This document shows positions 19,708-40,304 of a stretch of DNA of 64,000 nt, one piece after another. A model generated the notes under the pieces. It saw nothing but the letters and a program-made list of their open reading frames with translations, was not told the DNA's origin and did no database searches. Each line of letters begins with the position of its first letter. Within the stretch, counting starts at the first letter, position 1. Position numbers and translations under genes: made by a program. Source of the DNA: a virus; IMG/VR virus record IMGVR_UViG_3300025070_000022, positions 25,941 through 89,940 of that record; one strand, written 5' to 3'.

Positions 19708-22700
19708 AATTCATCCTCCAGTATTGTTTCAAGGGTATTTCCGCCAGCCGATAGACCTAAATTTAGGTCGAAGCCTAGTGTCTGCTCAAACCCAAGATTG
19801 AAAGAGTTTGCGCTTGCATTAGCCCTTTTCTTGACAACGATTTTTCTTTCTGTTAGGCTTATCTTCTCAAAGAAATCTTTAGATGTACGAACATTATCGA
19901 AAGAATCGCTTCTTGATTGAGCCTCTATCTTTTTAGTATTCTTCAAAATTTCAGCAAACCTATCCGTTAAGCCTTTAGTGAATTTACCAAGTTCTAATTT
20001 GATAGTACCAATTTGAGTATGTTCCATTTCTAAAATTACATATTTAGAGTATGCAATTCCTTCTTGTAATAGTTCAAGTCCTATAATATCCGATGGTCTT
20101 ACTTGTCCTAAATTCCTATGACCTAGTTCCAAAGAAATCTTCTTGTTAGAACTGGAATGTAATCTTAATAGGTTATACGCCCTATCGTCTACTTCCTGTT
20201 GAGTAGATAGGCTATTGTCGTTAATTTCCAATACCTTTCTTCCTCTTTCACGAATACTACTTCCGTTCTTTCTAACTGCTATTTTATCGTTAGAATAAAC
20301 TCTAACTTCATTGTAGAAGTCAAAGAGAACATCAGATTGGCTAAAGTTCACAATTTGTAATTCGTTTTTTGCATCTGTAATTGTTATCTTAGGTGAAAAT
20401 GCTGAATCCTTTTGGTCCTTGATTGAAAATTTATTATTGTCATAAATCAATCTTTTATTTTTCTTTTCAATTAGATAGTTAATTGCTGAAAATAAATCAG
20501 TTCCTTTTAGATTAGGTGCTACAATTAAGGGGTAGTCGTCGGAGTAGCCAGTAGTAAATTCTATGTCATTTTCTTCAAAGAGATTATTGATGAGAGTTTC
20601 TGTTTCTTCACCAATAGTAACTCCAGTACCTATGACTGCCCTAACTGGCTTACCTTTTAGGTTCTTATTCGTGGTGATAGTAATGGTATCCGATAATGAA
20701 ACTATGCCTTTAGTCAACTTATGTTTCCCAAAGGTAATGGCAAGACCCCTTCCTACAATGTCACCATCTCCAGTCCCTAACCAATCTATTTCAGTTGAGG
20801 TTTTGAAAGCGGTATTACCGTCGCTGATACATAGTGTCGAAGGTATTTCTGCCTTCTTAGTTTCTATATCAGCGAATTGATATAAAGCCAATAGCGGGCT
20901 TCTAGACACAACATGTTCCTTTGTACCACTGACCACCTTTCCATCTAAGTCTACAGTACAATACATAGACAACACTCCTTCGTTATGTCCCATGTTTTCT
21001 ATTGCAGTACCAGTGCTATATGTTAGGCTTCTCTTAGGGGAGTTTTCACCCTTTATCAAATAGTCTTTAATTGTACTATAGGTTTCATTCTTATATGGCA
21101 TCTTAGTATATTCCGATGATAAAGTGTTTATTTTAATTTTACTAGGAGTATATTCGTAAGTACAAGTTTCATTAGGTTGCATAACCCTATAGTATCCCGT
21201 AGGCAAATTAACATCACTTAGTACTATATGTCTTTTAGTAGAACTACCACTGTCTATTTCATGGGTCACTACATAACCCATTGAAGAAGGGGATGTGTTG
21301 TTTATTGCGGGTTGTTGTGTATCTAAGTCCACTGTTTGTGTAATGGTAGTGCCAGTTCCGTATTCTATCCCCTTTTCCGATACTAAATAGCATCCTGTTA
21401 AGTCTTTAATGAAATCTAAATATGGATAGTCACTGGAATTTAATGTGTATTTATACAAGGTAGTTCCCGATGGTCCTCTTACAGAAGCACTACTAGGTAG
21501 TTTAATTCTAAGTTTGAATCCCATATAGACCCCTTCTCCGTCGCTAGTCGTTGTAGATTCTAGACTACTATTGCCACCTCTTACGGTTCCTATTGGATTG
21601 TCAAATAGATTAGGTCTTACTGTAAATCCATAATTTAGCAAAGTTCCATTTGGATATTCTCTTAAATGGGCGTTGTTGATTGGCGGAGTTACTGTTCCCG
21701 ACTCCGATAGAATTGAGCCATCTTCCGTGTCGAATCTATCTAATACTACTCCCATAAACCCATATCTTAGGAATTGAGAAGGAGTGGTAGCATTGACAGT
21801 AGCGTCTAAAAGAGAATTATAGTGTTTTAATAATAGACTAGAATGCCCCGTCACAGCAGAGTTGTCGATGAACGGAGCATTATTACTAGAACTACCTTGA
21901 GTCATTGGTAGGATTAAATGACTATGGTGATTGCTAGTAGCAGTGAGTCCGTTTAGTGCGCCTCCTATCTCTGTCGTAGAAGTATCATTTTCAAACTTAC
22001 CACCGTGAAGTATTGAAATCAAAGGATGAATACTAGAATCAAACTCGGAAGCCCCCTTACTATCTCCATGTCCTCTAAATATGGCTTGCCGTTTAACTGC
22101 CTTGAATAAATTACCTGTAGCAATTCCTCCCGAACTAGTTGTCTTTACTATCTTTCTAGTAGAATCCCCATGATACAAATTCTTTAGCGTTATTGTAGTG
22201 GTCGAAACACTAGAAACTTCCCCAATCATATTTCCATCGCTGTCACAAATAATGTCATTTGCACTTAGGGAAGAACTCACATCTGAAGTAGTGAGTATAG
22301 CATCGTCGGAATCTCTAAAGCCAAAAGTCGTTCCTAAATCTGTAAATTCATAAAAGTGATAATTGAAGATTCTCATTGTTTTTGTTTTGTTTGGAAGGTG
22401 TTCGGGGTTTATTTGATTCATAGTTGAATCGAAAACTAACTCAGTTAATCTCATTAAACCAAAAGTAGTCATTTTGGTAATGTCTTCTACATCGTATTCT
22501 AAGATGTTAGCCGTATCATAATCATTGTCTAGGTATTTCTTTGCCTTTCCAGAACCTCCATACTTAGAATGTTTATCGGAAGTAGTATCTTCTGTTGGTT
22601 TGTTCAACAAATACAGACTAAAGTTTTTCAAATCCCTATTAGAGTAGAACAGACTATCATCTCTCAATTTACTATACGGTAATAAATCCGAAGTCGCAAA

Positions 22701-25700
22701 TAGGAAAAGTCTAGCGGCTTTAGGGTCTAACTGTTCCAAGAAATCTTTAATGTAAAAGTTAGATTTAATTCTACCACCTAATGTAGAGTCGTGTGAAGTA
22801 AAAACTTTATCTCTAGAGTGACCTGCTTCATGTACCACATAATCCCAAAATAGTGAACCACTAGCAGGGAAATATCCCCTCTCCTCAACTGGCAAGTGTA
22901 AATGAGAAGTTTCTCTAAATCTACTAGGTATTTTTTCTAAGGCGGTAGAACTTCTTCCTTGATTCATTTTGTAGGACGAAGCATAGTATTGAACCGAACT
23001 ACTACCATCATAGTAATTAGCATCGGAAGCCCTACCAACCTCTTCCTTTTCTGCGGTACTAACATCAGTAGTGTGATATTTACTAGCAATCACTTGTGTT
23101 TTTCTATTAAAAATTCCTTTCTCTATGTGGTTTATTTTGTAAAGAGGAACTCCATATTTTTCAACATAGGTTTCGACCAATTCGTGAGTTAGTGCTGTAG
23201 TTGGTCTAAGATAATTGTAGTAGGTTGGCTTCTGCATATCATCAGCCCCATAATCAACTCCTGCTTCAATTCCATATTGAGAATTCAATAGAGTTATCAT
23301 CTTACCCCCATGTAAATGCTCTCCATTCACTAGGTACAAATTGTGAGTATTTTTTCCGGAATACTGATTATTTGCTGTAGTTGTGAACCCTAATGTAGAA
23401 ATGGTTTCACCCAAACTGAAATTATTTACTGCCCTATCTAAGAAAACTCTCCAAGTATCTACCCCACTTGAAACTGTATTATAGCATACTACTTGAGTAC
23501 AATATCCTACAAATACAGAACTCAAATAAATAGGCAACCCTACATCTGCCACTGTCTTGATAGTAGAAGTATTGGACGGGTTAATGTCTAGGTATTTGTT
23601 ACCATCAACATCAAAACCACTACCACTACTAGTAGTAACACCTATTGTGGTTAATGTGGTATCGTAAGTATCGCTATCATTATGGTCTACTCTTCCTAAA
23701 GTTACAGGGAAGTAAGGGGCTAATTCTATGGTGGTTTTTCCATCTACAGTAGAGGTGTTCAAAACAGTAAAATCAATCAAGGTATTGACTGTTTCAAAGG
23801 TTTCATAATTTGTACCTCCATCACTTAGTTTGGCTTGGAACGCTTCTTCCTTTCCTATAGAAGAGGGGTGTTGTATATGAAATCCAACGGCATTGCTATC
23901 AACTCCGGAAGTTCTAGAAGTAGTACTCCCACTCAGTAGAGTACCGTCTAGTTTTTCGCCACTGTTGAAAAGTAATCCCTTGTCACTATTTCCCCCTAGG
24001 CTAGTAGCAAAGGTGGGTAGTTTATTGTTAGCAGATAGGGCTTTATTTAGAATATAATTTGTTTCTACTTCTTTCCATAGTTGTATTTCATTGACAGTAT
24101 CAGTACTCATTGCTTCCGCCAATGGTAAATTTTTCAAAGATATTGTAGTTTTTCCTATTGATGGAAAGTTTAGTGTTGTGGTCGCTCCCTCTCCTATGTA
24201 CGCTACTACACCATTTGTGTATTTTACAAATAGTTTTTTATTTACTAAACCAGTACTAAAATTAGTGATAGCAAAGGTTTTATTGTTAAAAGTTAAATCT
24301 CCCCCACTGTCCAAAACCCCGACAAGTTCTAACTTATTGTGTGGACTTCTAGTTGAATAGATAATATCCTCCGAAAAATTAGAATTACGATTTACTATTG
24401 GAGAAATTAGTTTTGAATAGTTATCCCTACCGGAAATAGTCATAGTACTCATACCCATATTTTTGTCTATTTCTATTTGTTCTATTTCTCCGTTGAATCT
24501 CTCTACTTCAATGATATATTGTCCGGAGACATATTCCAAAGAAGTGTAAGCAACATTGTATTTTTTACCTATTGAGTTATTGAAGGATAGAGTTAGAAAC
24601 TTTTGGTCTTTATTTGAACTCGTTACAGTCGCTTCAAGTCCTGCATAATTCTTATCCAAGAAAACTATTTTTAGTTGACTTTCTCTTCCTTCAATGAAAG
24701 GAAAGGTAGTGAGTAGATTGCTCTTAGATGAACTAAAGGCTCTACGATATAATCTATCACCTGCGCTTAGTGTATAGGAAGAGGTAGAGAAGGAACTTTC
24801 TGTGTCTAATCTAGAACTAGTAGTGAAAGTAATATCTTGTGTAAATGCACTAGCATTGAAAGCATCAATTGTATCAACTCTTACTACTCTAGACCCTACT
24901 AATATTTCATCATCTAATGATAACAAATTCGCTAAATCATATCCTTCTTCTGTAGTAAATGTGTACTCATTTCCTGTGACATTTGCCTTCACTGTCGCCT
25001 TGAGGGGGAACCATTCAAAGAACTCACCCCTATGCTGTTGCTGTCGAACTCTAAAAGCCTCAAACTCCCCTACCTTTGAGGACATGATTCGGGAGGTGTC
25101 TACAATTCTTGACTCCGCATAACCCCCCCTCCCGCCAAATGATTCTTTCAAATTGGTGCTAATAACCATAGGGACTTCGTTGGCTGTTTCGGGAGAATAG
25201 CCGTAGTGAAGATACCGATATGGGCCAACTAGATTGAGAGCGGATTTCACATTGTTGTCGTCACGCCTAGCATGGTAAAACGATTCATCATAATCTGTGA
25301 AGTCATTATTCACTAATGTCAATCCTTCATTAGAAGTCTGTTTGGTGCTAGTATAACTGCTAGTACTGGGGTCGTCTAGTACCTTTAAATTGTCAACAAG
25401 CGCAGTTTTAATGTTAAACTTACTGTAGTCTTTAACAGAAAAACCATAGTCTTGAGAAGTAATAAATGTGTTTGTCACAAATGAACTAATGGTAGCACTG
25501 CCCATTTGAGAAGAAGCATATTTGACATAATATTTTTTATTGTGGTCAAGTTGATTCTTCTTATCTAGTCTAGAATTGTGAAAGTAAAATAGGGGTTTAG
25601 AACATAGCAATGATTTATTCATTCTGTAGGTAGTGCTACCCGCAGTAATTTCAGTAGCAAGAACACCACTACTCACCGCCACTATAGTAGATTCATCCTC

Positions 25701-26189
25701 ATCATCTCCTCTAAATACCATGAATTTAGTGTCCTTGGTAATAGAAGAACCTAGTCTCGGCTCAAATTCAAAACTATCCCCTGCAACATCATCAGTAGTA
25801 AATTGTGTAATTCTAGCAAAGTGGTGAGTTAATCCACTATCCGAGTTTATCAATACATAGTGATTATAGCCATTATCAGTAGAATTTAGGCGAATGCCTT
25901 CTTCAGTAATGCTATCATAGCACTTTATTTTGTACCCCTCGGTATTTTCTAAATTGGAATATTGTGTACCGGCAGAATCCGAACCTTGTAATTGCTGAAC
26001 GAAAATGTCATTATTAGAATCATCAGTAGATATGTAAGTGAACATTCTATGGGTATCAGTACAAGTAAGCGTATCGTGAATAATAGGATTCGTAGGGCAA
26101 TCGAAATTGACATTGTTACCTGCGTTTCCTAGAGTGGCTTCCACAGTAGGATTTATTGCAGTACCCTTACGCATAGCATATACTGTCAT
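19704..26189 (-). CDS. Large tail hub/central tail protein (2161 aa)
   Basis: Position after the tape measure and distal tail genes; TISGRD and C-terminal NEVRVY...ELG hub-like segments. Confidence 0.65.
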   Translation of the reverse strand: MTVYAMRKGTAINPTVEATLGNAGNNVNFDCPTNPIIHDTLTCTDTHRMFTYISTDDSNNDIFVQQLQGSDSAGTQYSNLENTEGYKIKCYDSITEEGIRLNSTDNGYNHYVLINSDSGLTHHFARITQFTTDDVAGDSFEFEPRLGSSITKDTKFMVFRGDDEDESTIVAVSSGVLATEITAGSTTYRMNKSLLCSKPLFYFHNSRLDKKNQLDHNKKYYVKYASSQMGSATISSFVTNTFITSQDYGFSVKDYSKFNIKTALVDNLKVLDDPSTSSYTSTKQTSNEGLTLVNNDFTDYDESFYHARRDDNNVKSALNLVGPYRYLHYGYSPETANEVPMVISTNLKESFGGRGGYAESRIVDTSRIMSSKVGEFEAFRVRQQQHRGEFFEWFPLKATVKANVTGNEYTFTTEEGYDLANLLSLDDEILVGSRVVRVDTIDAFNASAFTQDITFTTSSRLDTESSFSTSSYTLSAGDRLYRRAFSSSKSNLLTTFPFIEGRESQLKIVFLDKNYAGLEATVTSSNKDQKFLTLSFNNSIGKKYNVAYTSLEYVSGQYIIEVERFNGEIEQIEIDKNMGMSTMTISGRDNYSKLISPIVNRNSNFSEDIIYSTRSPHNKLELVGVLDSGGDLTFNNKTFAITNFSTGLVNKKLFVKYTNGVVAYIGEGATTTLNFPSIGKTTISLKNLPLAEAMSTDTVNEIQLWKEVETNYILNKALSANNKLPTFATSLGGNSDKGLLFNSGEKLDGTLLSGSTTSRTSGVDSNAVGFHIQHPSSIGKEEAFQAKLSDGGTNYETFETVNTLIDFTVLNTSTVDGKTTIELAPYFPVTLGRVDHNDSDTYDTTLTTIGVTTSSGSGFDVDGNKYLDINPSNTSTIKTVADVGLPIYLSSVFVGYCTQVVCYNTVSSGVDTWRVFLDRAVNNFSLGETISTLGFTTTANNQYSGKNTHNLYLVNGEHLHGGKMITLLNSQYGIEAGVDYGADDMQKPTYYNYLRPTTALTHELVETYVEKYGVPLYKINHIEKGIFNRKTQVIASKYHTTDVSTAEKEEVGRASDANYYDGSSSVQYYASSYKMNQGRSSTALEKIPSRFRETSHLHLPVEERGYFPASGSLFWDYVVHEAGHSRDKVFTSHDSTLGGRIKSNFYIKDFLEQLDPKAARLFLFATSDLLPYSKLRDDSLFYSNRDLKNFSLYLLNKPTEDTTSDKHSKYGGSGKAKKYLDNDYDTANILEYDVEDITKMTTFGLMRLTELVFDSTMNQINPEHLPNKTKTMRIFNYHFYEFTDLGTTFGFRDSDDAILTTSDVSSSLSANDIICDSDGNMIGEVSSVSTTTITLKNLYHGDSTRKIVKTTSSGGIATGNLFKAVKRQAIFRGHGDSKGASEFDSSIHPLISILHGGKFENDTSTTEIGGALNGLTATSNHHSHLILPMTQGSSSNNAPFIDNSAVTGHSSLLLKHYNSLLDATVNATTPSQFLRYGFMGVVLDRFDTEDGSILSESGTVTPPINNAHLREYPNGTLLNYGFTVRPNLFDNPIGTVRGGNSSLESTTTSDGEGVYMGFKLRIKLPSSASVRGPSGTTLYKYTLNSSDYPYLDFIKDLTGCYLVSEKGIEYGTGTTITQTVDLDTQQPAINNTSPSSMGYVVTHEIDSGSSTKRHIVLSDVNLPTGYYRVMQPNETCTYEYTPSKIKINTLSSEYTKMPYKNETYSTIKDYLIKGENSPKRSLTYSTGTAIENMGHNEGVLSMYCTVDLDGKVVSGTKEHVVSRSPLLALYQFADIETKKAEIPSTLCISDGNTAFKTSTEIDWLGTGDGDIVGRGLAITFGKHKLTKGIVSLSDTITITTNKNLKGKPVRAVIGTGVTIGEETETLINNLFEENDIEFTTGYSDDYPLIVAPNLKGTDLFSAINYLIEKKNKRLIYDNNKFSIKDQKDSAFSPKITITDAKNELQIVNFSQSDVLFDFYNEVRVYSNDKIAVRKNGSSIRERGRKVLEINDNSLSTQQEVDDRAYNLLRLHSSSNKKISLELGHRNLGQVRPSDIIGLELLQEGIAYSKYVILEMEHTQIGTIKLELGKFTKGLTDRFAEILKNTKKIEAQSRSDSFDNVRTSKDFFEKISLTERKIVVKKRANASANSFNLGFEQTLGFDLNLGLSAGGNTLETILEDEF

Positions 26190-33871: not shown

Positions 33872-35169
33872 AACATATACACTAAGTCTTTCTTACCATC
33901 AATAAGAGCCATCCCTTCTGTACGAAGTAAATCGTACTTCTCCTTCGCTGATATGTTTGCTCCAGTTTCAGCAATCATTATTGTTTGGTCGTCATGTCGT
34001 AGAATTTCTGCCGCAACTAATTTAGTAGTGGCTTCGTGAACTGTAGAAGGTACTCTTCCATCACCAGCAACATAAGAAACAATGATTGAGTTCTTGTTAT
34101 GATAAGGATACTTCTTCAAAAAGAAAATTCTTCCATCGTCGCTCATCATCCAAAAGTCTCCTAAACGCTTCATATCTTCTTTGTCAGTAAAAGGTACAAT
34201 AGAACAGACTGTGGGGATTTCATTGGTAGTGGTAAAGGTTAGTGTACTTGAGGCAGAACCAGTAGCGGCTTTGGAAAGAGTGACGGTAGTTCCACTATCA
34301 ATAGAAGAAATAGTAGTAGAGGCAGGGATATTAGTTCCTGTGACTTCCATATCTACTGCTAATTTACTAGAATCGGCTACAGTCAAACTAGTGCTGGAGT
34401 TACTAGTAGTACAAGACTGTTGAATAGTAGCCTTTAGTGTGCAACCTGCTCCATCATCTCCCGATAATAAAGATGAAATTAAGACCTTAGTACCATCTTG
34501 GTCGTCTTTTTGTGAAAAGAAGAAATCCGAAATATTTAGATTACTAGTTTCTAATTCTTTTGAAGCAGTTGCTCCTGTAAATTGAGAGGTATTCGAGGGA
34601 AATTTCTCATTAATCAAATCAACAATTTCATTGTTAGTGGTCTTTATTCCGAAGGTAGTACAAAACTCATCGTTTGCTAGTGCGGAAACATCATTTTCTG
34701 CTAGTAATTCAAAAGAAACTCCACCGTTAGGTAGTTGGAAAATAATAGAGTGTATATCTCTAAAGTTGTCTAAGAGGGTAATGGACCCTTGAGCCGAGGC
34801 TAATTCTCGATAGTCATTACCTTCCCAAACTCTAAGGCTTACAATCTTTCTAATCTTCATCTGTTGTAGTTGTATAAAACCCACATATCCACCATAATAA
34901 GAAGCAATAGGACTCCTAGTAAATTCAAAATCTTTAAACTCATTCTTCCAAATAATGGGTCTAAAAGAACGGTTAATTTTTTCATCTACCATCCCTTCTA
35001 TTCTTTTAATAATGGAGCCGACTTGTGCGGCAGAAGGATTAGTACCGGAGGTGAAAGGAGTGACTTGTAGTAGGTCAGAAACTGCGGCTATATCTGTGTA
35101 GAAACCTTGTCCTGTAGCATAGTTTGGGTTAATTGAAGTATAGTCACTGGGGGAGGATGCTACTGGCAT
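33865..35169 (-). CDS. Head-tail adaptor/connector
   Basis: YTDIAAV..LL N-terminus and VSYVAG..VPSTVHEATTKLVA C-terminus of gp6/gp15-like adaptors. Confidence 0.65.
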   Translation of the reverse strand: MPVASSPSDYTSINPNYATGQGFYTDIAAVSDLLQVTPFTSGTNPSAAQVGSIIKRIEGMVDEKINRSFRPIIWKNEFKDFEFTRSPIASYYGGYVGFIQLQQMKIRKIVSLRVWEGNDYRELASAQGSITLLDNFRDIHSIIFQLPNGGVSFELLAENDVSALANDEFCTTFGIKTTNNEIVDLINEKFPSNTSQFTGATASKELETSNLNISDFFFSQKDDQDGTKVLISSLLSGDDGAGCTLKATIQQSCTTSNSSTSLTVADSSKLAVDMEVTGTNIPASTTISSIDSGTTVTLSKAATGSASSTLTFTTTNEIPTVCSIVPFTDKEDMKRLGDFWMMSDDGRIFFLKKYPYHNKNSIIVSYVAGDGRVPSTVHEATTKLVAAEILRHDDQTIMIAETGANISAKEKYDLLRTEGMALIDGKKDLVYMLD

Positions 35170-36782
35170 TATATCACCTTCTCTTTTAATTCAGCAAGTT
35201 CTTCTTCTAAATCGTCAAAGTTTCCTAGTATATCACTTATGAAATCCGAGACAAATACTTGTTGTGTCCTTACCTCATCTTTCATTAAGCGGAGATGGGA
35301 CAAACCATAACTAGCCATTCTTTCAGCGTATTCTTCTTTGGTTTCTATTCTTGTTTTTTTGCCTATCTTTACCCTTTTTCCATATAGGAGAGGTCTTTCT
35401 GTAGGGGTGAATTGCCCTACTCTATCGTCACCTTTACCTTTTACTTTTAGATTAGCCATTTGTGTGAATTTTAGTTCAGTATATTGGTGGGCTATTTCAA
35501 TCATAACTTCATTCTTTGCTTTGATATTATCTATAACATCTCTTTCAATAGCACCAGTAAATCCAGCAGACATAAACTTCTTTTGTTTAACTACAGCAGT
35601 CTTAGTTTTCTCCGCTTCTGCTTCAGCCATAGGTATCCGTTGTCGGTCTTTCCATTGAGTATCTAGGGAGTTTAGTTCCTTATACAACTTCTTTGCTTCC
35701 TTTAAATCTTCATCATCAAGAAGACCATCCTTCCTCTTTTTATTGACTAGAGATAGTTCTTCATATGTACTAAGAATATCTATTTTCAAATCTTCTACAG
35801 TCCTTCTAGGCTTAACAGATTTAACATTCTCTACTAAGTTCTTCACTCCTTCTGTGATGAAATCGTGAGATTTTTCTCCGATTACTTGTCTCTCACCCTT
35901 ACTTTTAAAATCCAATGTCAATTTCAAATTATTAGAAATATCTAAATCTAAAACAGATGGCATAATGAGAAGAATGATTTTAGCAATAACTCCTGCATCA
36001 AAATCCAAACTTAAAAATATTTCAGTATCGGTTTTTTTCCTAGATTTAATTTCATCGGAAAATAATTCTTTAACGGCTTCGCCTAATGCATCCTTATCTT
36101 CTAAACTAACAAGTGCCTTTACTCTTTCTGTATCAGTACCGACCCTAACAATTTCTGCAATTCCTTGTTCTCTAAGCACTTGTGATTTTTCTTCCAAGTC
36201 TATTTCTAGAGTGAATTTTTCTCCCTCGAAGAATTTCTCTTCTGTAAATTTACTTTCAGCCTCTTCCAATTTAGCGTCTATTGCATCTAAGAGAAGTTTG
36301 CCTAAACGAACATAGACTCTATCTTGTAATTTAGATATTTGCTCATCATCCAGTTCCTTTGCTTCATCTATATCTTTATCTGTAGGCTTTCTAAACTCGG
36401 AAAAAGAGCCGAAGCCGGAAACTCTTTTCAGTAAATTAGGAGCCTCTAAATCCTTTATTGAATAATTAAGTAGACTTGGAATTATCGGAGTTTTATCGGT
36501 TTCTTTTTTAGAGTAATCAATTATCAATCTATTCTTCAAATTATACGATTCATCATTAACAATATCAGCAATAGTTCTTTGTTCTAAAGGAACTATTATC
36601 TCTTGTAATTTATCAACAAATTCTTGAAAATTTTCTTCTGTTCCATCCAACGAATCCAAATCATCTAAAATTTTAGAATCTGTTGATAAATGTTCATCAA
36701 AAACAAGTTCTACAATATCCTTTTCTAAAGTATCCTTATTTAAATTATAAGTTGTTGTGCGATTCAGTTTGAAGTTGACCAA
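35169..36782 (-). CDS. Hypothetical charged protein
   Basis: 537 aa ORF, no motif recognised. Confidence 0.6.
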   Translation of the reverse strand: MVNFKLNRTTTYNLNKDTLEKDIVELVFDEHLSTDSKILDDLDSLDGTEENFQEFVDKLQEIIVPLEQRTIADIVNDESYNLKNRLIIDYSKKETDKTPIIPSLLNYSIKDLEAPNLLKRVSGFGSFSEFRKPTDKDIDEAKELDDEQISKLQDRVYVRLGKLLLDAIDAKLEEAESKFTEEKFFEGEKFTLEIDLEEKSQVLREQGIAEIVRVGTDTERVKALVSLEDKDALGEAVKELFSDEIKSRKKTDTEIFLSLDFDAGVIAKIILLIMPSVLDLDISNNLKLTLDFKSKGERQVIGEKSHDFITEGVKNLVENVKSVKPRRTVEDLKIDILSTYEELSLVNKKRKDGLLDDEDLKEAKKLYKELNSLDTQWKDRQRIPMAEAEAEKTKTAVVKQKKFMSAGFTGAIERDVIDNIKAKNEVMIEIAHQYTELKFTQMANLKVKGKGDDRVGQFTPTERPLLYGKRVKIGKKTRIETKEEYAERMASYGLSHLRLMKDEVRTQQVFVSDFISDILGNFDDLEEELAELKEKVI

Positions 36783-36794
36783 TGTAAATCACCT

Positions 36795-37442
36795 TCACAT
36801 TAACCACTTGCCCCAAGCCGCTAATTTCTGCGCTTTTTGGGCTAAATGTAGACCGCTTTGTGGAGGTTCATAACTCATCTGTCCATTTGTAGGGTCAATC
36901 CAGTAAGGCCTTCCATAATTATCATTTCCACTAGGAGGTATAGGATAGCCACTGCCATTATTCATAGCCAATCCAGTAGTGCCATAGGCTCCTTGTTGAA
37001 TTGGTTGTTGTGGCATTCCATGTGAGGGATTAGAAGCCCCACTAAATCCTTGAGATTCAAGATATTGTTGTTTTGCCATTTTTCTTTGATTAATAATTTC
37101 ACTATTTATTGCAGAATTCAAGATAGCATTCATATCTAAAGCGATATTCTCTTGAGTAATTTGCTCATATTCTCGTAGGCTATCACTACTAACTTTCATA
37201 TTTCCAGTAGTAGAATCTTGACGAAACTCTAATTTAGTTAGCATTCTACTAACACTTCTGTCAATTACATCTTCCATCAATTGCTCTAAACTAGATAAAA
37301 ACTGTTCTCCGTGATATTGAAAGAATTCTTCCACATGGTTTTCTTGTAGAGAAAGCAGGTTATTTACAGTCTTAAACTGCGTGTCATTTTGCGCTTGTAC
37401 TGCGCCCATTACTGCCCCATTACTTGTTCCAAATACGCCCAT
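36795..37442 (-). CDS. Helical protein with C-terminal WW-like motif
   Basis: IPPSGNDNYGRPYWIDPTNGQMSYEPP after a Q/G-rich linker. Confidence 0.55.
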   Translation of the reverse strand: MGVFGTSNGAVMGAVQAQNDTQFKTVNNLLSLQENHVEEFFQYHGEQFLSSLEQLMEDVIDRSVSRMLTKLEFRQDSTTGNMKVSSDSLREYEQITQENIALDMNAILNSAINSEIINQRKMAKQQYLESQGFSGASNPSHGMPQQPIQQGAYGTTGLAMNNGSGYPIPPSGNDNYGRPYWIDPTNGQMSYEPPQSGLHLAQKAQKLAAWGKWLM

Positions 37443-38071
37443 TATTCCTCACCTTTAGTCACTATAGTATTCAATCGCTCGCTAGATATTCTTATTTCGT
37501 TTGTTAGTCGTATTACTTCTTCTAGTTTATTTTCATCCGTAGTCGGAGTAGGAGGAGTAACTATCCAACCTACGCCCACTAGCGAAACAACATCGGCCTT
37601 TGATAAGGTGGTAAGTGGCCCCTTAGATAAAACTTGGGGCATTTTTGGTCTTGGAATGAATGCCTTAAAATCTAAGCCATGCTCGTCTGCCAGTATTTGC
37701 TGTTGTAGCATTTCCATTTGTCTATGATGTGTAGCGTGTTTAGGGCAATAAGTACCTCTCATCGGCCTACCTTTAGTGACATGGCTTAGTGGGATAGGGG
37801 GTCGCATGTAATCTCCGCTCTCCCAAATATGATGAACACCGCAGACAACGCAACGGTCTTTTAAATTAAATTTCCAGCCATATTTGATGAATAAGAATTT
37901 CTTTTTTTCTGCATTGAGTACCTTGGTAATTTCTTTCAGCATCTTCTTTGGTTTAATCTGCACGAAAGAATATTCGGAAACTGGACCTGCGGCTCTTGCG
38001 CTCATTAGAGGAGGCAAGAAAGAACTAGCAATGCTAGGATTGTTGGCGATTAGGTTGGGCTGTTGAAACAT
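37442..38071 (-). CDS. Zn-binding, Pro-rich protein
   Basis: CVVCG...YCPKH; RPPIP and TPPTP. Confidence 0.6.
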   Translation of the reverse strand: MFQQPNLIANNPSIASSFLPPLMSARAAGPVSEYSFVQIKPKKMLKEITKVLNAEKKKFLFIKYGWKFNLKDRCVVCGVHHIWESGDYMRPPIPLSHVTKGRPMRGTYCPKHATHHRQMEMLQQQILADEHGLDFKAFIPRPKMPQVLSKGPLTTLSKADVVSLVGVGWIVTPPTPTTDENKLEEVIRLTNEIRISSERLNTIVTKGEE

Positions 38072-38110
38072 AATTATTCCTCGTTTTCTTTTCTTTGTAT
38101 AGGTTTCTAT

Positions 38111-38569
38111 TTAAAAATACTTTAGCATTTCTTCAAAATGTTCTTTTGCATTATCCCTAGTAGCACTTGTTGTACCATGAAGTCTATCCCCTTCTATTGT
38201 TTTACGCATAGATTCTATCACCTTTTCATCAGGAACTTTTTTCTTTGTAGCATCTTTAAAGTAATCTTCTCCTAATTCAAAGGTTGGCTCTATGCCTCTA
38301 CCCATGCCACCTTCCCCATATTCTTTATCAGCCAACAAATAATAGAATTTTTTACTAGGAATTGCTCGGAATACCTTTGGCTTTCCATCATCTCTAGGAG
38401 TACTCTCTTGTTCGCTACCAAAAAAAGCATATTCTACTGCTTCATCAAAATCAAATGTCCAATGCCTAGTTTCCCCTCTAATTTGAACTCCTTGAAAAAC
38501 CTCATCGTATGTATCAAGTTTAGTCCCGTCAAGTATATGGAAGGGCTTCTTTAGTATATCTTCCCACAT
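38111..38569 (-). CDS. WxxILK-tagged protein, possible ADP-ribosyltransferase fold
   Basis: MWEDILKK; VFQG...HWTFDFDEAVEYA resembles ART-fold strands 1-2. Confidence 0.45.
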   Translation of the reverse strand: MWEDILKKPFHILDGTKLDTYDEVFQGVQIRGETRHWTFDFDEAVEYAFFGSEQESTPRDDGKPKVFRAIPSKKFYYLLADKEYGEGGMGRGIEPTFELGEDYFKDATKKKVPDEKVIESMRKTIEGDRLHGTTSATRDNAKEHFEEMLKYF

Positions 38570-39013
38570 AATAATCAATATCCTTTATCACATATATTCG
38601 GGAATATCCCATGAGCCATAAGTTGAATTTTTATTCCACATATTATCTGCTTCCCCGCTTTGTCCAATATCTCCAACAAAATCATAGTTTTGGTTGCTTA
38701 AAGCATAGGCAATCAAATGATATAGGTTTTCAGCATATCCTCTTCTCATAAATTCAGTTTTTGTACTAACATCTCTTGCTTGAAAAACATCATCGTCTAT
38801 TTTTTCGGCAAAGGCTCTTGTTAATTGAACTCCTTCTTTATCTACAATATTACCGTCTAAAGAATCTCCATGAATATTAACATTCATTTTTAATTTTTCT
38901 TTGCTTTTAGGGTCTAGGTATATAGCAGTCACACTATTCCCTCTAATAACTATATTAGAAATGGGATTTTGCTTTAGTATATCTTGCCACATAATATCAG
39001 TAATCCTTTATCA
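38549..39013. repeat. About 42-bp imperfect direct repeat (38549-38590, 38972-39013)
   Basis: CTTTAGTATATCTT(C/G)CCACATAATA...TCCTTTATCA; flanks the GNAT gene. Confidence 0.8.
38588..38992 (-). CDS. WxxILK-tagged GNAT-family acetyltransferase-like protein
   Basis: MWQDILKQ; motif A-like TEFMRRGYAENLY and QSGEADNMW. Confidence 0.65.
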   Translation of the reverse strand: MWQDILKQNPISNIVIRGNSVTAIYLDPKSKEKLKMNVNIHGDSLDGNIVDKEGVQLTRAFAEKIDDDVFQARDVSTKTEFMRRGYAENLYHLIAYALSNQNYDFVGDIGQSGEADNMWNKNSTYGSWDIPEYM

Positions 39014-39668
39014 TTGTAGTAACGCCCTTGTAGACCATTTCCGGCTGTGATTTAGCAGAAACAATGTACTTGTAAGTCGGTATTCCCTTGTCGTTTAACT
39101 GTTGCATCCCATATTTAAAAGGAGTGAAAATCGAATGGTTAGAAATATCTACATCTTCCTTGTATTTATCTCCCCAAATGTCATATTTGTTAGCCCAAAT
39201 ACCTACGGCTAGTGGGTAGTCAGTGTTTTTCTTCTTCTTACCATTTGGCCAAGAAGCACTACAAATAGCATCTACTAGAAATTTCCATGCTAATTGATGG
39301 TCTAGATTGGCAGTAGAGTCTAAATGTCTATGGTCTATTACAAAGATAACATACTTTACCTTTCTATTCTTCATATCTTGCATCCATTCTCTCCAATAGA
39401 TTGCTTCACCGCCCATGTCAGCAGTTTTCAAAGTATGAGTATCGCCGTCTAATTTTATTGTTTTTCGACTAGCCCTTTGTTTGCCAACAGTTCTTTCTCT
39501 TATTTCCGGAACTTCGCCTCTAGTTCTTAGTTGATGGTGCAAAGTAGTCTTACCTACCATAGTAGCACCATAGATTCCAAAGTTAATTGCATGTACTTTC
39601 TTGTAAAACGCTACTGTAGCCTCAATACAAACTACTGCGAAACCCGCTAATACAGACAAAAAAATCAC
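38997..39668 (-). CDS. Small GTPase (Arf/Sar/SRbeta-like) with N-terminal hydrophobic helix
   Basis: G1 GATMVGKT, G2 RTVG, G3 DMGG, G4 NKYD, G5 SAK. Confidence 0.9.
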   Translation of the reverse strand: MIFLSVLAGFAVVCIEATVAFYKKVHAINFGIYGATMVGKTTLHHQLRTRGEVPEIRERTVGKQRASRKTIKLDGDTHTLKTADMGGEAIYWREWMQDMKNRKVKYVIFVIDHRHLDSTANLDHQLAWKFLVDAICSASWPNGKKKKNTDYPLAVGIWANKYDIWGDKYKEDVDISNHSIFTPFKYGMQQLNDKGIPTYKYIVSAKSQPEMVYKGVTTMIKDY

Positions 39669-39896
39669 CTAATGTGTAATGTGGTCCCAAGTATCTGTTA
39701 TCTTTTCTATCATCCAACCCATAATGTTGAGGTCAAAGACTCCCATTATGTTGCCAATAAGAAGTGCTGATAATGTGGCACAAGAACCCCAAAACCAAAA
39801 GCGCATTTTAATAAAAAACATGTCAGCAGAATGCGCCCTGCTTTGGTTATATGCGTAGTCGGATTCGGAGAATCCCATTAAGTCGCCTAGAACCAT
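39669..39896 (-). CDS. Small membrane protein
   Basis: FWFWGSCATLSALLIGNIMGVF transmembrane segment. Confidence 0.7.
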   Translation of the reverse strand: MVLGDLMGFSESDYAYNQSRAHSADMFFIKMRFWFWGSCATLSALLIGNIMGVFDLNIMGWMIEKITDTWDHITH

Positions 39897-39905
39897 TTAA
39901 CCACC

Positions 39906-40304
39906 TCACTGTAGAGTGGCTAAGAAATCTGTTGAAACGCCCTCAGTTTCATATTGCGGAGAAATTTGTGGGATTCTAGAAGTTTGATTTTCGGCTTGGA
40001 ATGTCTTCAAAGAATCTTGCATCTTTTTTCTTTGCTGTTCATCCTTAGCAATTCTTTGCCAATAGGCAGTAATTCTTCTGTCTAGTAGCCACATCTCAAT
40101 CTTATCATTAAGAGCCAAATCAAATAATGCCTTCATTACCATTACAGCACCTACTGTAATCAGCCCAAACAATACGCCATGCATTAGAATGGTGTATGGG
40201 AAGTTCAACCCAAATTTAGCGTAGAAGAAGACATTTGCTCCACTAACAGTACCTACGAATAGGATAGTCATAATCAAGCGAGTGTCGTGGTTTAATGCTG
40301 GCAA
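39906..40304 (-). CDS. Two-TM membrane protein with coiled-coil tail
   Basis: Two hydrophobic helices followed by QRIAKDEQQRKKMQ. Confidence 0.7.
   Translation of the reverse strand: MPALNHDTRLIMTILFVGTVSGANVFFYAKFGLNFPYTILMHGVLFGLITVGAVMVMKALFDLALNDKIEMWLLDRRITAYWQRIAKDEQQRKKMQDSLKTFQAENQTSRIPQISPQYETEGVSTDFLATLQ

Follow-up and report, generated by a model that had tools for sequence, protein, structure and literature searches.

What does a tailed virus of archaea do with a small GTPase that is encoded next to small membrane proteins? This question is raised by positions 36795-40304 of a 64,000-nucleotide stretch of viral DNA (hereinafter, the window), namely positions 25,941 to 89,940 of IMG/VR record IMGVR_UViG_3300025070_000022, which form the 3' end (64 kb) of one virus record, 89,940 bp long and rated 100% complete by CheckV. 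Here we show that the GTPase is virus-specific and Arf-like, with a hydrophobic helix that would anchor it in a membrane, and that it belongs to a block of five genes held together across two clades of magroviruses. In the searched literature on magroviruses, Poseidoniales viruses and archaeal-virus GTPases (titles, abstracts and main-text terms), neither the GTPase nor the block was found described; the term 'GTPase' is absent from the main texts of PMC5434244, PMC10160649 and PMC11706807, the supplementary annotation tables of which may list the gene. We are highly confident about what the GTPase and the block are, taken alone, and it appears likely that the block is a membrane-acting GTP-switch unit.

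The source virus belongs to the magroviruses, tailed viruses that infect Marine Group II archaea. Among its products are a split family-B DNA polymerase, an ATP-dependent ligase and the head and packaging proteins, namely, the terminase large subunit (TerL), portal, prohead protease and a major head protein (the capsid gene product, which matches phrog_24667 at E 5.7e-21). Genes for tail tube, tail assembly chaperone and tape measure proteins are located downstream of the block, and a search for tRNA genes found none. Homologs of the GTPase are encoded on contigs of 78-96 kb, and one of them is named 'hypothetical protein QKV95_gp088 [Poseidoniales virus YSH_150918]'.

A five-gene block that moves as one unit

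All seven open reading frames (ORFs) of the block region are present on the minus strand, tightly packed, and five of these form the core of the block. The first core gene encodes a 132-amino-acid (aa) membrane protein with two predicted transmembrane (TM) helices and a charged, coiled C-terminal tail (2-TM protein, 39906-40304); it is followed, after 9 nt, by the gene for a 75-aa protein with a single, moderately hydrophobic helix (1-TM protein, 39669-39896), the stop codon of which abuts the ORF of the GTPase, the third core gene (38997-39668). After 4 nt comes a tagged gene (38588-38992), after 9 more nt another one (38111-38578) and, after a further 39 nt, the fourth core gene, which encodes a 209-aa Cys/His, probably zinc-binding protein (37442-38071). 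The stop codon of the latter overlaps by one base the start of the fifth core gene, which encodes a 215-aa Gln-rich protein (36795-37442). All block genes are co-oriented with the structural genes.

Conservation of the block was analyzed in two samples. The GTPase-anchored sample consists of 160 loci from IMG/VR, half of them from the clade of the window (clade A, L001-L080) and half from a second clade with about 30% GTPase identity (clade B, L081-L160); IMG/VR holds 398 confirmed GTPase loci of the former clade and 81 of the latter. The plus-strand ORFs of these loci and of the window, 2,410 proteins, were clustered all-against-all; the ORF caller missed the GTPase in 3 further clade A loci and 7 further clade B loci. 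The capsid-anchored sample includes the best 80 of 582 confirmed capsid-protein loci, some contigs of which overlap the GTPase-anchored set.

The co-occurrence of the five genes in related viruses, which the earlier note on this DNA had proposed to check, is complete in the capsid-anchored sample. The GTPase and both membrane proteins are encoded in all 51 loci with at least 3.2 kb of downstream sequence, and the Cys/His and Gln-rich proteins in all 40 loci with at least 6 kb. In the GTPase-anchored loci of clade A, the order 2-TM protein, 1-TM protein, GTPase is found in 76 of 77 cases, the remaining locus being cut at the contig end, and both the 132-aa gene and the 75-aa gene are detected in 79 of the 80 loci (the missing 132-aa gene would lie at a contig end). 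The Cys/His gene directly follows the GTPase gene in 47 of 74 loci, and follows it after one to three cassette genes in the other 27.

The same order is kept in clade B. The GTPase, Cys/His and Gln-rich genes are adjacent in 73/73 loci, a 2-TM protein of 143-202 aa is encoded two genes upstream of the GTPase in all 69 uncut loci, and a 1-TM protein of 73-99 aa, which resembles the 75-aa protein of the window in size, position and layout, is encoded between the two. The clustering joins the GTPases of both clades in one family (151 members), and the same holds for the Cys/His (151) and Gln-rich (146) proteins; the cross-clade link for the latter two comes from this all-against-all comparison, and in a tblastn search of the window proteins against clade B loci the GTPase alone matched (78/80). 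Profile comparison of the clade A and clade B 2-TM proteins gives a borderline result (hhalign probability 49%, E 1.7e-4). Clade B has, in addition, a sixth member, a 2-TM protein of 77-94 aa encoded right after the Gln-rich gene in 68 of the 73 loci (for example, L093 10376-10618 and L085 10312-10566), with no counterpart at that position in the window.

The location of the block differs between the clades. That of clade A is flanked by the capsid region on one side and the tail genes on the other; of the surroundings given in the earlier note, a late operon between capsid and adaptor, the capsid gene is found, the adaptor is putative, and the late timing follows from position only. In clade B, the block is directly upstream of a gene encoding a terS-like protein with zinc-binding and helix-turn-helix motifs, and TerL is encoded about 7 kb downstream. 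Because clade B keeps the gene order at a different genome position, the block moves as one unit. The median identity among the GTPases is 74.9%, compared with 76.0% for the capsid protein, in two sets that were selected differently.

In either clade, the block is surrounded by morphogenesis genes: it follows the capsid gene in one and precedes the terS-like gene and TerL in the other. This bears on one alternative explanation, in which the anchored GTPase and its partners would organize an assembly site, marking a patch of membrane for capsid assembly, packaging or head-tail joining. Tailed viruses are not known, as a matter of general knowledge, to need membranes for assembly, and the position of the block relative to the head genes changes between the clades, which argues against a fixed structural partner; we regard an assembly-site organizer as unlikely. 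In its favor, the Arf-family GTPases classically recruit soluble effectors to membranes, as described in bioRxiv 10.1101/2024.02.28.582541.

The GTPase family is restricted to viruses. A phmmer search against 1.84 billion cluster representatives yields 60 GTPase matches at E<=0.001, many of them fragments, and the full-length distant ones are 31-39% identical to the GTPase of the window. Among 185,579 prokaryote species genomes, one for each species, there are only two matching loci, both in a metagenome-assembled genome labeled 'Maricaulis sp.' (contigs NZMJ01000024.1 and NZMJ01000101.1, of 12 and 29 kb, with 35-37% G+C). Because both contigs, at low G+C, include the magrovirus capsid gene together with the entire block, they are mis-binned virus. 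Recent or sporadic acquisition from a host, a possibility raised in the earlier note, is rejected, given that these mis-binned contigs are the sole matches in cellular genomes. A tblastn search of the GTPase against the 'phages' collection gave no match. Among the structural matches listed in BFVD, 49 of 50 come from eukaryotic giant viruses and one is nameless, consistent with the remark in the earlier note that tailed viruses do not usually have small GTPases. The giant-virus small GTPases, such as the mimivirus Rab (PDB 5XC5), are host-like copies of Rab, Ras or Ran in viruses of eukaryotes, whereas the GTPase described here is encoded by a prokaryote-type tailed virus and lacks a close cellular counterpart. 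Some of the homologs are labeled 'GTPase SAR1 family protein' by JGI.

The two tagged genes that the earlier note had seen interrupting the cluster are variable inserts and not part of the core: the one at 38588-38992, with an N-terminal MWxDILK tag, is present in 1 of 80 related loci, and the one at 38111-38578 in 4 of 80, two of which have it on the opposite side of the GTPase. Insertions cluster at the GTPase-Cys/His junction (38111-38992), a hot spot where 27 of 74 loci have between one and three additional genes, and a single cassette gene separates the 75-aa (1-TM) gene from the GTPase gene in 5 of 79 clade A loci. The inserts in the window begin with the MWxDILK tag that is common to many magrovirus accessory genes. 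Right after the block, an acidic coiled protein of 537 aa is encoded (35169-36782), with a strongly hydrophobic segment at residues 255-273 (Kyte-Doolittle value 2.05); this family is variable, the version of the window being found in 9 of 80 loci and other families occupying the position elsewhere. Upstream of the window, a 512-aa ORF (positions 21633-23171 of the record) has a C-terminal tail that scores as hydrophobic and an N-terminus that looks chaperonin-like (group I/II), by eye only.

The GTPase and its relation to the Arf family

The ORF of the GTPase opens with GTG at 39668. Most of the homologs are 220 aa long and start at the position of TTG 39659, and a Shine-Dalgarno-like AGGTGAT is located just upstream of this TTG (39657-39671). 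Because the homologs start at this position and AGGTGAT precedes it, the true start is probably TTG 39659, with a product of 220 aa (38997-39659). The stop codon of the 75-aa gene and this site overlap, which suggests translational coupling of the two genes. Residue numbers below follow the 223-aa reading.

The five G motifs announced for this ORF are found: G1 (GxxxxGKT) at residues 34-41, G3 (DMGG) at 84-87, G4 (NKYD) at 160-163 and G5 (SAK) at 204-206, with T60 as the candidate G2 threonine, which aligns with the switch-I Thr of Arf in the match to 8oun_A. When 25 family members with identities as low as 23% are aligned, G34, G39, K40, T42, D84, G87, D112, N160, K161 and D163 are invariant, such that G1, G3 and G4 are all represented by invariant columns, and W95 (after G3), W165 and S204 are at least 90% conserved. 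G1, G3, G4 and G5 occur together in all 77 clade A GTPases; in clade B, G4 is present in 73/73 and G1 in 70/73. The order G1-G3-G4-G5 is that of the Ras superfamily (P-loop, TRAFAC class).

In the AlphaFold2 model (pLDDT 86, pTM 0.83), a helix at residues 2-25 precedes a G domain with the six-stranded fold of small G proteins, and Foldseek returned only small GTPases among the matches listed. As the earlier note had claimed, the N-terminal helix is hydrophobic; it is also non-amphipathic, with a Kyte-Doolittle mean over 18 residues (KD18) of 2.31 and a hydrophobic moment of 0.08. Across the 77 GTPases of clade A, the average KD18 is 1.98 and the hydrophobic moment is low, that is, the helix is as hydrophobic as a TM segment. 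Judging solely from this hydrophobicity and from the membrane-protein neighbors, membrane association of the GTPase is the best reading. In clade B, the helix is weakly hydrophobic (mean KD18 1.27), which counts against this reading and would better suit a soluble or virion-associated role, for example, that of a GTP-dependent morphogenesis chaperone in which the hydrophobic N-terminus is a buried helix, or of proteins packaged in the virion. The clade A block also sits where head-completion genes usually lie; in clade B, however, it is found elsewhere, which argues against head-completion proteins. Furthermore, two to three dedicated TM proteins are fixed neighbors of the GTPase in both clades, and the hydrophobicity of the clade A helix fits poorly with a soluble protein, so that we give such a role only a slim chance.

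Several lines of evidence place the G domain near the Arf family. The best match among PDB profiles is an Asgard ArfR, 8oun_A (E 6e-9), followed by KRas and Rab33 at about 4e-8; 8oun is cited in the Asgard ArfR paper (bioRxiv 10.1101/2024.02.28.582541). The DxGG...W pattern, which combines the Arf-type G3 with the switch-II Trp, is present in 77 of 77 clade A and 63 of 73 clade B GTPases, and the Arf-like switch II originally described for the window holds, with D84 and G87 invariant and W95 conserved as given above. The Pfam Arf profile (PF00025) matches 8 of the 25 family members at E<=1, and its cut-off of 22.3 bits is passed only by the distant singletons P0161, P0158 and P0177 (57.2, 27.2 and 24.5 bits, respectively), which are encoded on contigs of 1.2-1.6 kb. 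One of these, P0161, bridges the two families, matching the GTPase of the window at E 1e-7 in the search of 1.84 billion proteins and Arf at E 1.9e-15; for P0133, no viral contig was found. In the ESM Atlas, the named clusters nearest to the GTPase are all PF00025 among the matches listed, which we treat as a lead only.

Other results tell against assignment to the Arf family proper. For the GTPase of the window itself, there is no Pfam Arf match at E<=1; the best Pfam match is SRPRB (PF09439; 19.1 bits, cut-off 25), and Ras (17.9 bits, cut-off 21.6), MMR_HSR1 (19.4 bits) and Roc (18.2 bits) also stay below their cut-offs. Among the NCBIfam profiles, only TIGR00231 matched, at 25.9 bits compared with a cut-off of 42.5. 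The top 21 rows of the VIA structural comparison are Arf or Arl, but Rab and Ras chains lie within 1 Z unit, and because the Z scores are this close, structure alone cannot separate Arf from Rab/Ras.

The SRPRB profile matches 15 of the 25 family members at E<=1 (best E 8.1e-5, 22.5 bits, which is below the cut-off of 25), and some members carry DxPG in G3, as does SRbeta. The architecture of SRbeta, an N-terminal TM anchor directly before an Arf-like G domain, is that of the viral GTPase as well, and SRPRB is its best Pfam match. The resemblance is architectural only: SRbeta is eukaryotic, the viral score falls short of the cut-off, and nothing in the block is linked to protein targeting. SRbeta has itself been placed inside the Arf family, a defining feature of which is an N-terminal amphipathic helix released upon GTP binding (bioRxiv 10.1101/2024.02.28.582541). 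Such a helix is characteristic of Arf, Arl, Sar1 and ArfR (GerdArfR1, 8OUN/8OUM), whereas that of the viral GTPase is uniformly hydrophobic (hydrophobic moment 0.08-0.18), an anchor in the style of SRbeta. The viral GTPase differs from the Arf family also in that Glu replaces the switch-II Gln in clade A, the Pfam Arf match is lacking, there is extra length in the beta2-beta3 region and ahead of G4, and the gene belongs to a tailed archaeal virus. Overall, the Arf-like character emerges from several independent signals, each weak to moderate, and the protein is a divergent Arf/SRbeta-like small GTPase, not a demonstrated member of the Arf family.

Partner proteins and the ArvABC precedent

In the 132-aa protein, the predicted TM segments are residues 10-28 and 39-57, and 38 columns are invariant in 13 sequences of the family. 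It has no Pfam match above threshold and no match in PHROGs, including the holin families, or in PADLOC. The 75-aa protein consists of the single helix preceded by a soluble N-terminal part in which a RAHSAD motif is invariant; 16 columns are invariant overall.

The Cys/His protein has no recognizable fold. Residues C74, G78, C109 and H112, in a CxxC...CPxH pattern, are invariant in 37 sequences of both clades, in support of the zinc binding that had been suggested for 37442-38071; the description of this protein as Pro-rich fits weakly, and in clade A only. Its model (pLDDT 74) has no structural match, and the sequence has no Pfam match. The family has 1015 database members at E<=0.001; the 120 listed all lack a name or are labeled 'hypothetical', and many come from contigs around 100 kb long. 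A complex prediction for residues 24-223 of the GTPase with the Cys/His protein, with alignments for both, scored 0.01 against a mark of 0.32, which gives no answer either way.

The Gln-rich protein consists of a conserved N-terminal MG(V/L/F)FG, a central helical/beta domain and variable stretches rich in Gln, Met and Gly. The helical part of the earlier description of 36795-37442 as a helical WW-like protein stands, with beta structure added; the WW similarity is weak, at a Pfam E of 0.29 in the window. Among 40 members scanned against Pfam, there were only weak WW matches and noise, with 6 members at E<=1 (best 2e-4). The WW-like GRPYW...T.Q.SYEPP motif and a Trp-rich last helix (36795-36950) are conserved in clade A only, and the clade B proteins end instead in Gly-rich hydrophobic tails. 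There is no PDB match (best E 0.5) and no usable Atlas match. A reading of this protein as SepF/ArvB-like, based on its N-terminal hydrophobic motif, linker and globular domain, was dropped, there being no SepF or OapB match.

The closest precedent for such a gene arrangement is the ArvABC (OapABC) operon of Haloferax, in which an Arf-like GTPase is likewise followed by two small partner genes, one of zinc type. As reported in PMC10927574, ArvA, which acts on the cell membrane, is needed for the budding of membrane vesicles and is restrained by its zinc-ribbon partner ArvC: fewer vesicles are produced when ArvA or ArvB is lost, and more when ArvC is lost. By analogy, the viral GTPase could drive or hijack outward budding of the host membrane, for non-lytic release, decoys or host manipulation, with the Cys/His protein as an ArvC-like regulator. 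The shared layout and the phenotypes in vesicle output speak for this explanation. However, searches of the 89.9-kb genome with the profiles of OapB (PF09846) and OapC (PF09845) yield nothing at E<=0.001, despite positive controls in Haloferax volcanii and Methanosarcina acetivorans, and, because these partners are absent, the block is not a detectable ArvABC operon. The Cys/His protein, moreover, is not matched by any Pfam family, and the viral helix is plainly hydrophobic, with two fixed membrane partners, whereas the N-terminal helix of ArvA is described in PMC10927574 as amphipathic, and ArvA lacks dedicated TM partners. Vesiculation of the ArvA kind is, in our estimate, quite unlikely.

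A possible role at the host membrane

A hydropathy scan of the coding strand of the 89.9-kb genome predicts small TM proteins in the block only; the other TM-like segments on this strand are in the tape measure protein and the 537-aa protein. That the block holds all the small membrane proteins predicted there would be compatible with host take-over or superinfection exclusion, for which small viral membrane proteins are, by general knowledge, often employed. The block would then alter the envelope (receptors, transport or division), protecting the cell or redirecting its physiology. Such genes are usually variable and early, though, whereas the block is conserved like the capsid gene and lies among late genes, and no defense family was matched by PADLOC for 10 proteins. 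We rate this explanation as very unlikely.

The block is best interpreted as acting at the host membrane late in infection, with egress as the leading specific guess. We infer this because the GTPase comes from a family of effector-recruiting GTP switches, carries an anchor with basic residues and has fixed membrane-protein partners, and also because of the position in the late operon and the confinement of small TM proteins to the block. The N-terminal helix would tether the G domain to the cytoplasmic side of the host membrane, in an N-out, C-in orientation that fits the basic residues after the helix. There, the GTPase could act as a GTP/GDP switch that organizes or times the two small membrane proteins, with the Cys/His and Gln-rich proteins as its putative regulator and effector. 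The block would be transcribed with the late (virion) genes, and its most likely job would be to remodel or breach the host membrane to release progeny, a process in which disruption of the membrane would fall to the 2-TM protein, holin-like with its charged tail. Taken as a whole, including the mechanism of egress, this explanation is tentative, with somewhat less than an even chance of being right.

The most specific form of this proposal is GTP-switched lysis, in which the anchored Arf-like GTPase times or assembles holin-like proteins that open the host membrane. We consider it possible but doubtful. Like phage holin cassettes, the block encodes small proteins with one or two TM segments and a charged C-terminal tail in the late region, and the layout of the 132-aa protein resembles that of class II holins. 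Unlike these cassettes, the block has no match to a holin family and no endolysin, and none of the 40 window proteins scanned is recognizable as a holin or endolysin, in agreement with the earlier note. We know of no phage lysis cassette with a small GTPase. Holin-like genes of Poseidoniales viruses are placed by PMC11706807 in Adrikavirales and not in Magrovirales.

Several points weigh against a GTP-switched role at the membrane. The TM segments were scored with a simple hydropathy window and not with a trained predictor. Of the two membrane proteins that had been claimed beside the GTPase, the one at 39906-40304 has two predicted TM segments, whereas that at 39669-39896 has a single borderline one (Kyte-Doolittle mean over 19 residues 1.55; family median 1.68), and the 1-TM proteins of clades A and B have no detectable homology (hhalign probability 0.6%). 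The catalytic mechanism of the GTPase appears uncertain given the replacement at the switch-II Gln position, which is occupied by Glu in 77/77 clade A GTPases and, among the 73 of clade B, by Q (45), E (12) or D (6). The late timing is inferred from gene position. Of the GTPase-controlled egress, lysis or membrane remodeling originally proposed, the GTPase and the conserved block are substantiated; the function of the block, its localization, GTP hydrolysis and the contacts between its proteins are putative.

Contigs from one marine metatranscriptome run match parts of the GTPase gene, the junction of the 75-aa and GTPase genes, and the 132-aa gene with 0-1 differences. They were not counted as expression because DNA carry-over is possible and the contigs lack transcript structure; parts of the block without such coverage carry no meaning.

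Marine Group II archaea, the hosts of magroviruses, are described as being among the most abundant microbes of the surface ocean. The egress route of tailed archaeal viruses is unknown, and lysis genes have gone unrecognized in magroviruses; the block, which is as conserved as the capsid gene and combines the only small membrane proteins predicted for the virus with a GTP switch of a type that shapes membranes in eukaryotes and, in the case of ArvA, in haloarchaea, provides a concrete set of five genes for expression and assay. If GTP-switched lysis proves true, it would have no counterpart in phage biology. The block would extend Arf-type membrane switches to viruses of prokaryotes, as the first viral use of such a switch outside eukaryotes if the reading is correct, and would bear on the pre-eukaryotic history of this GTPase family.

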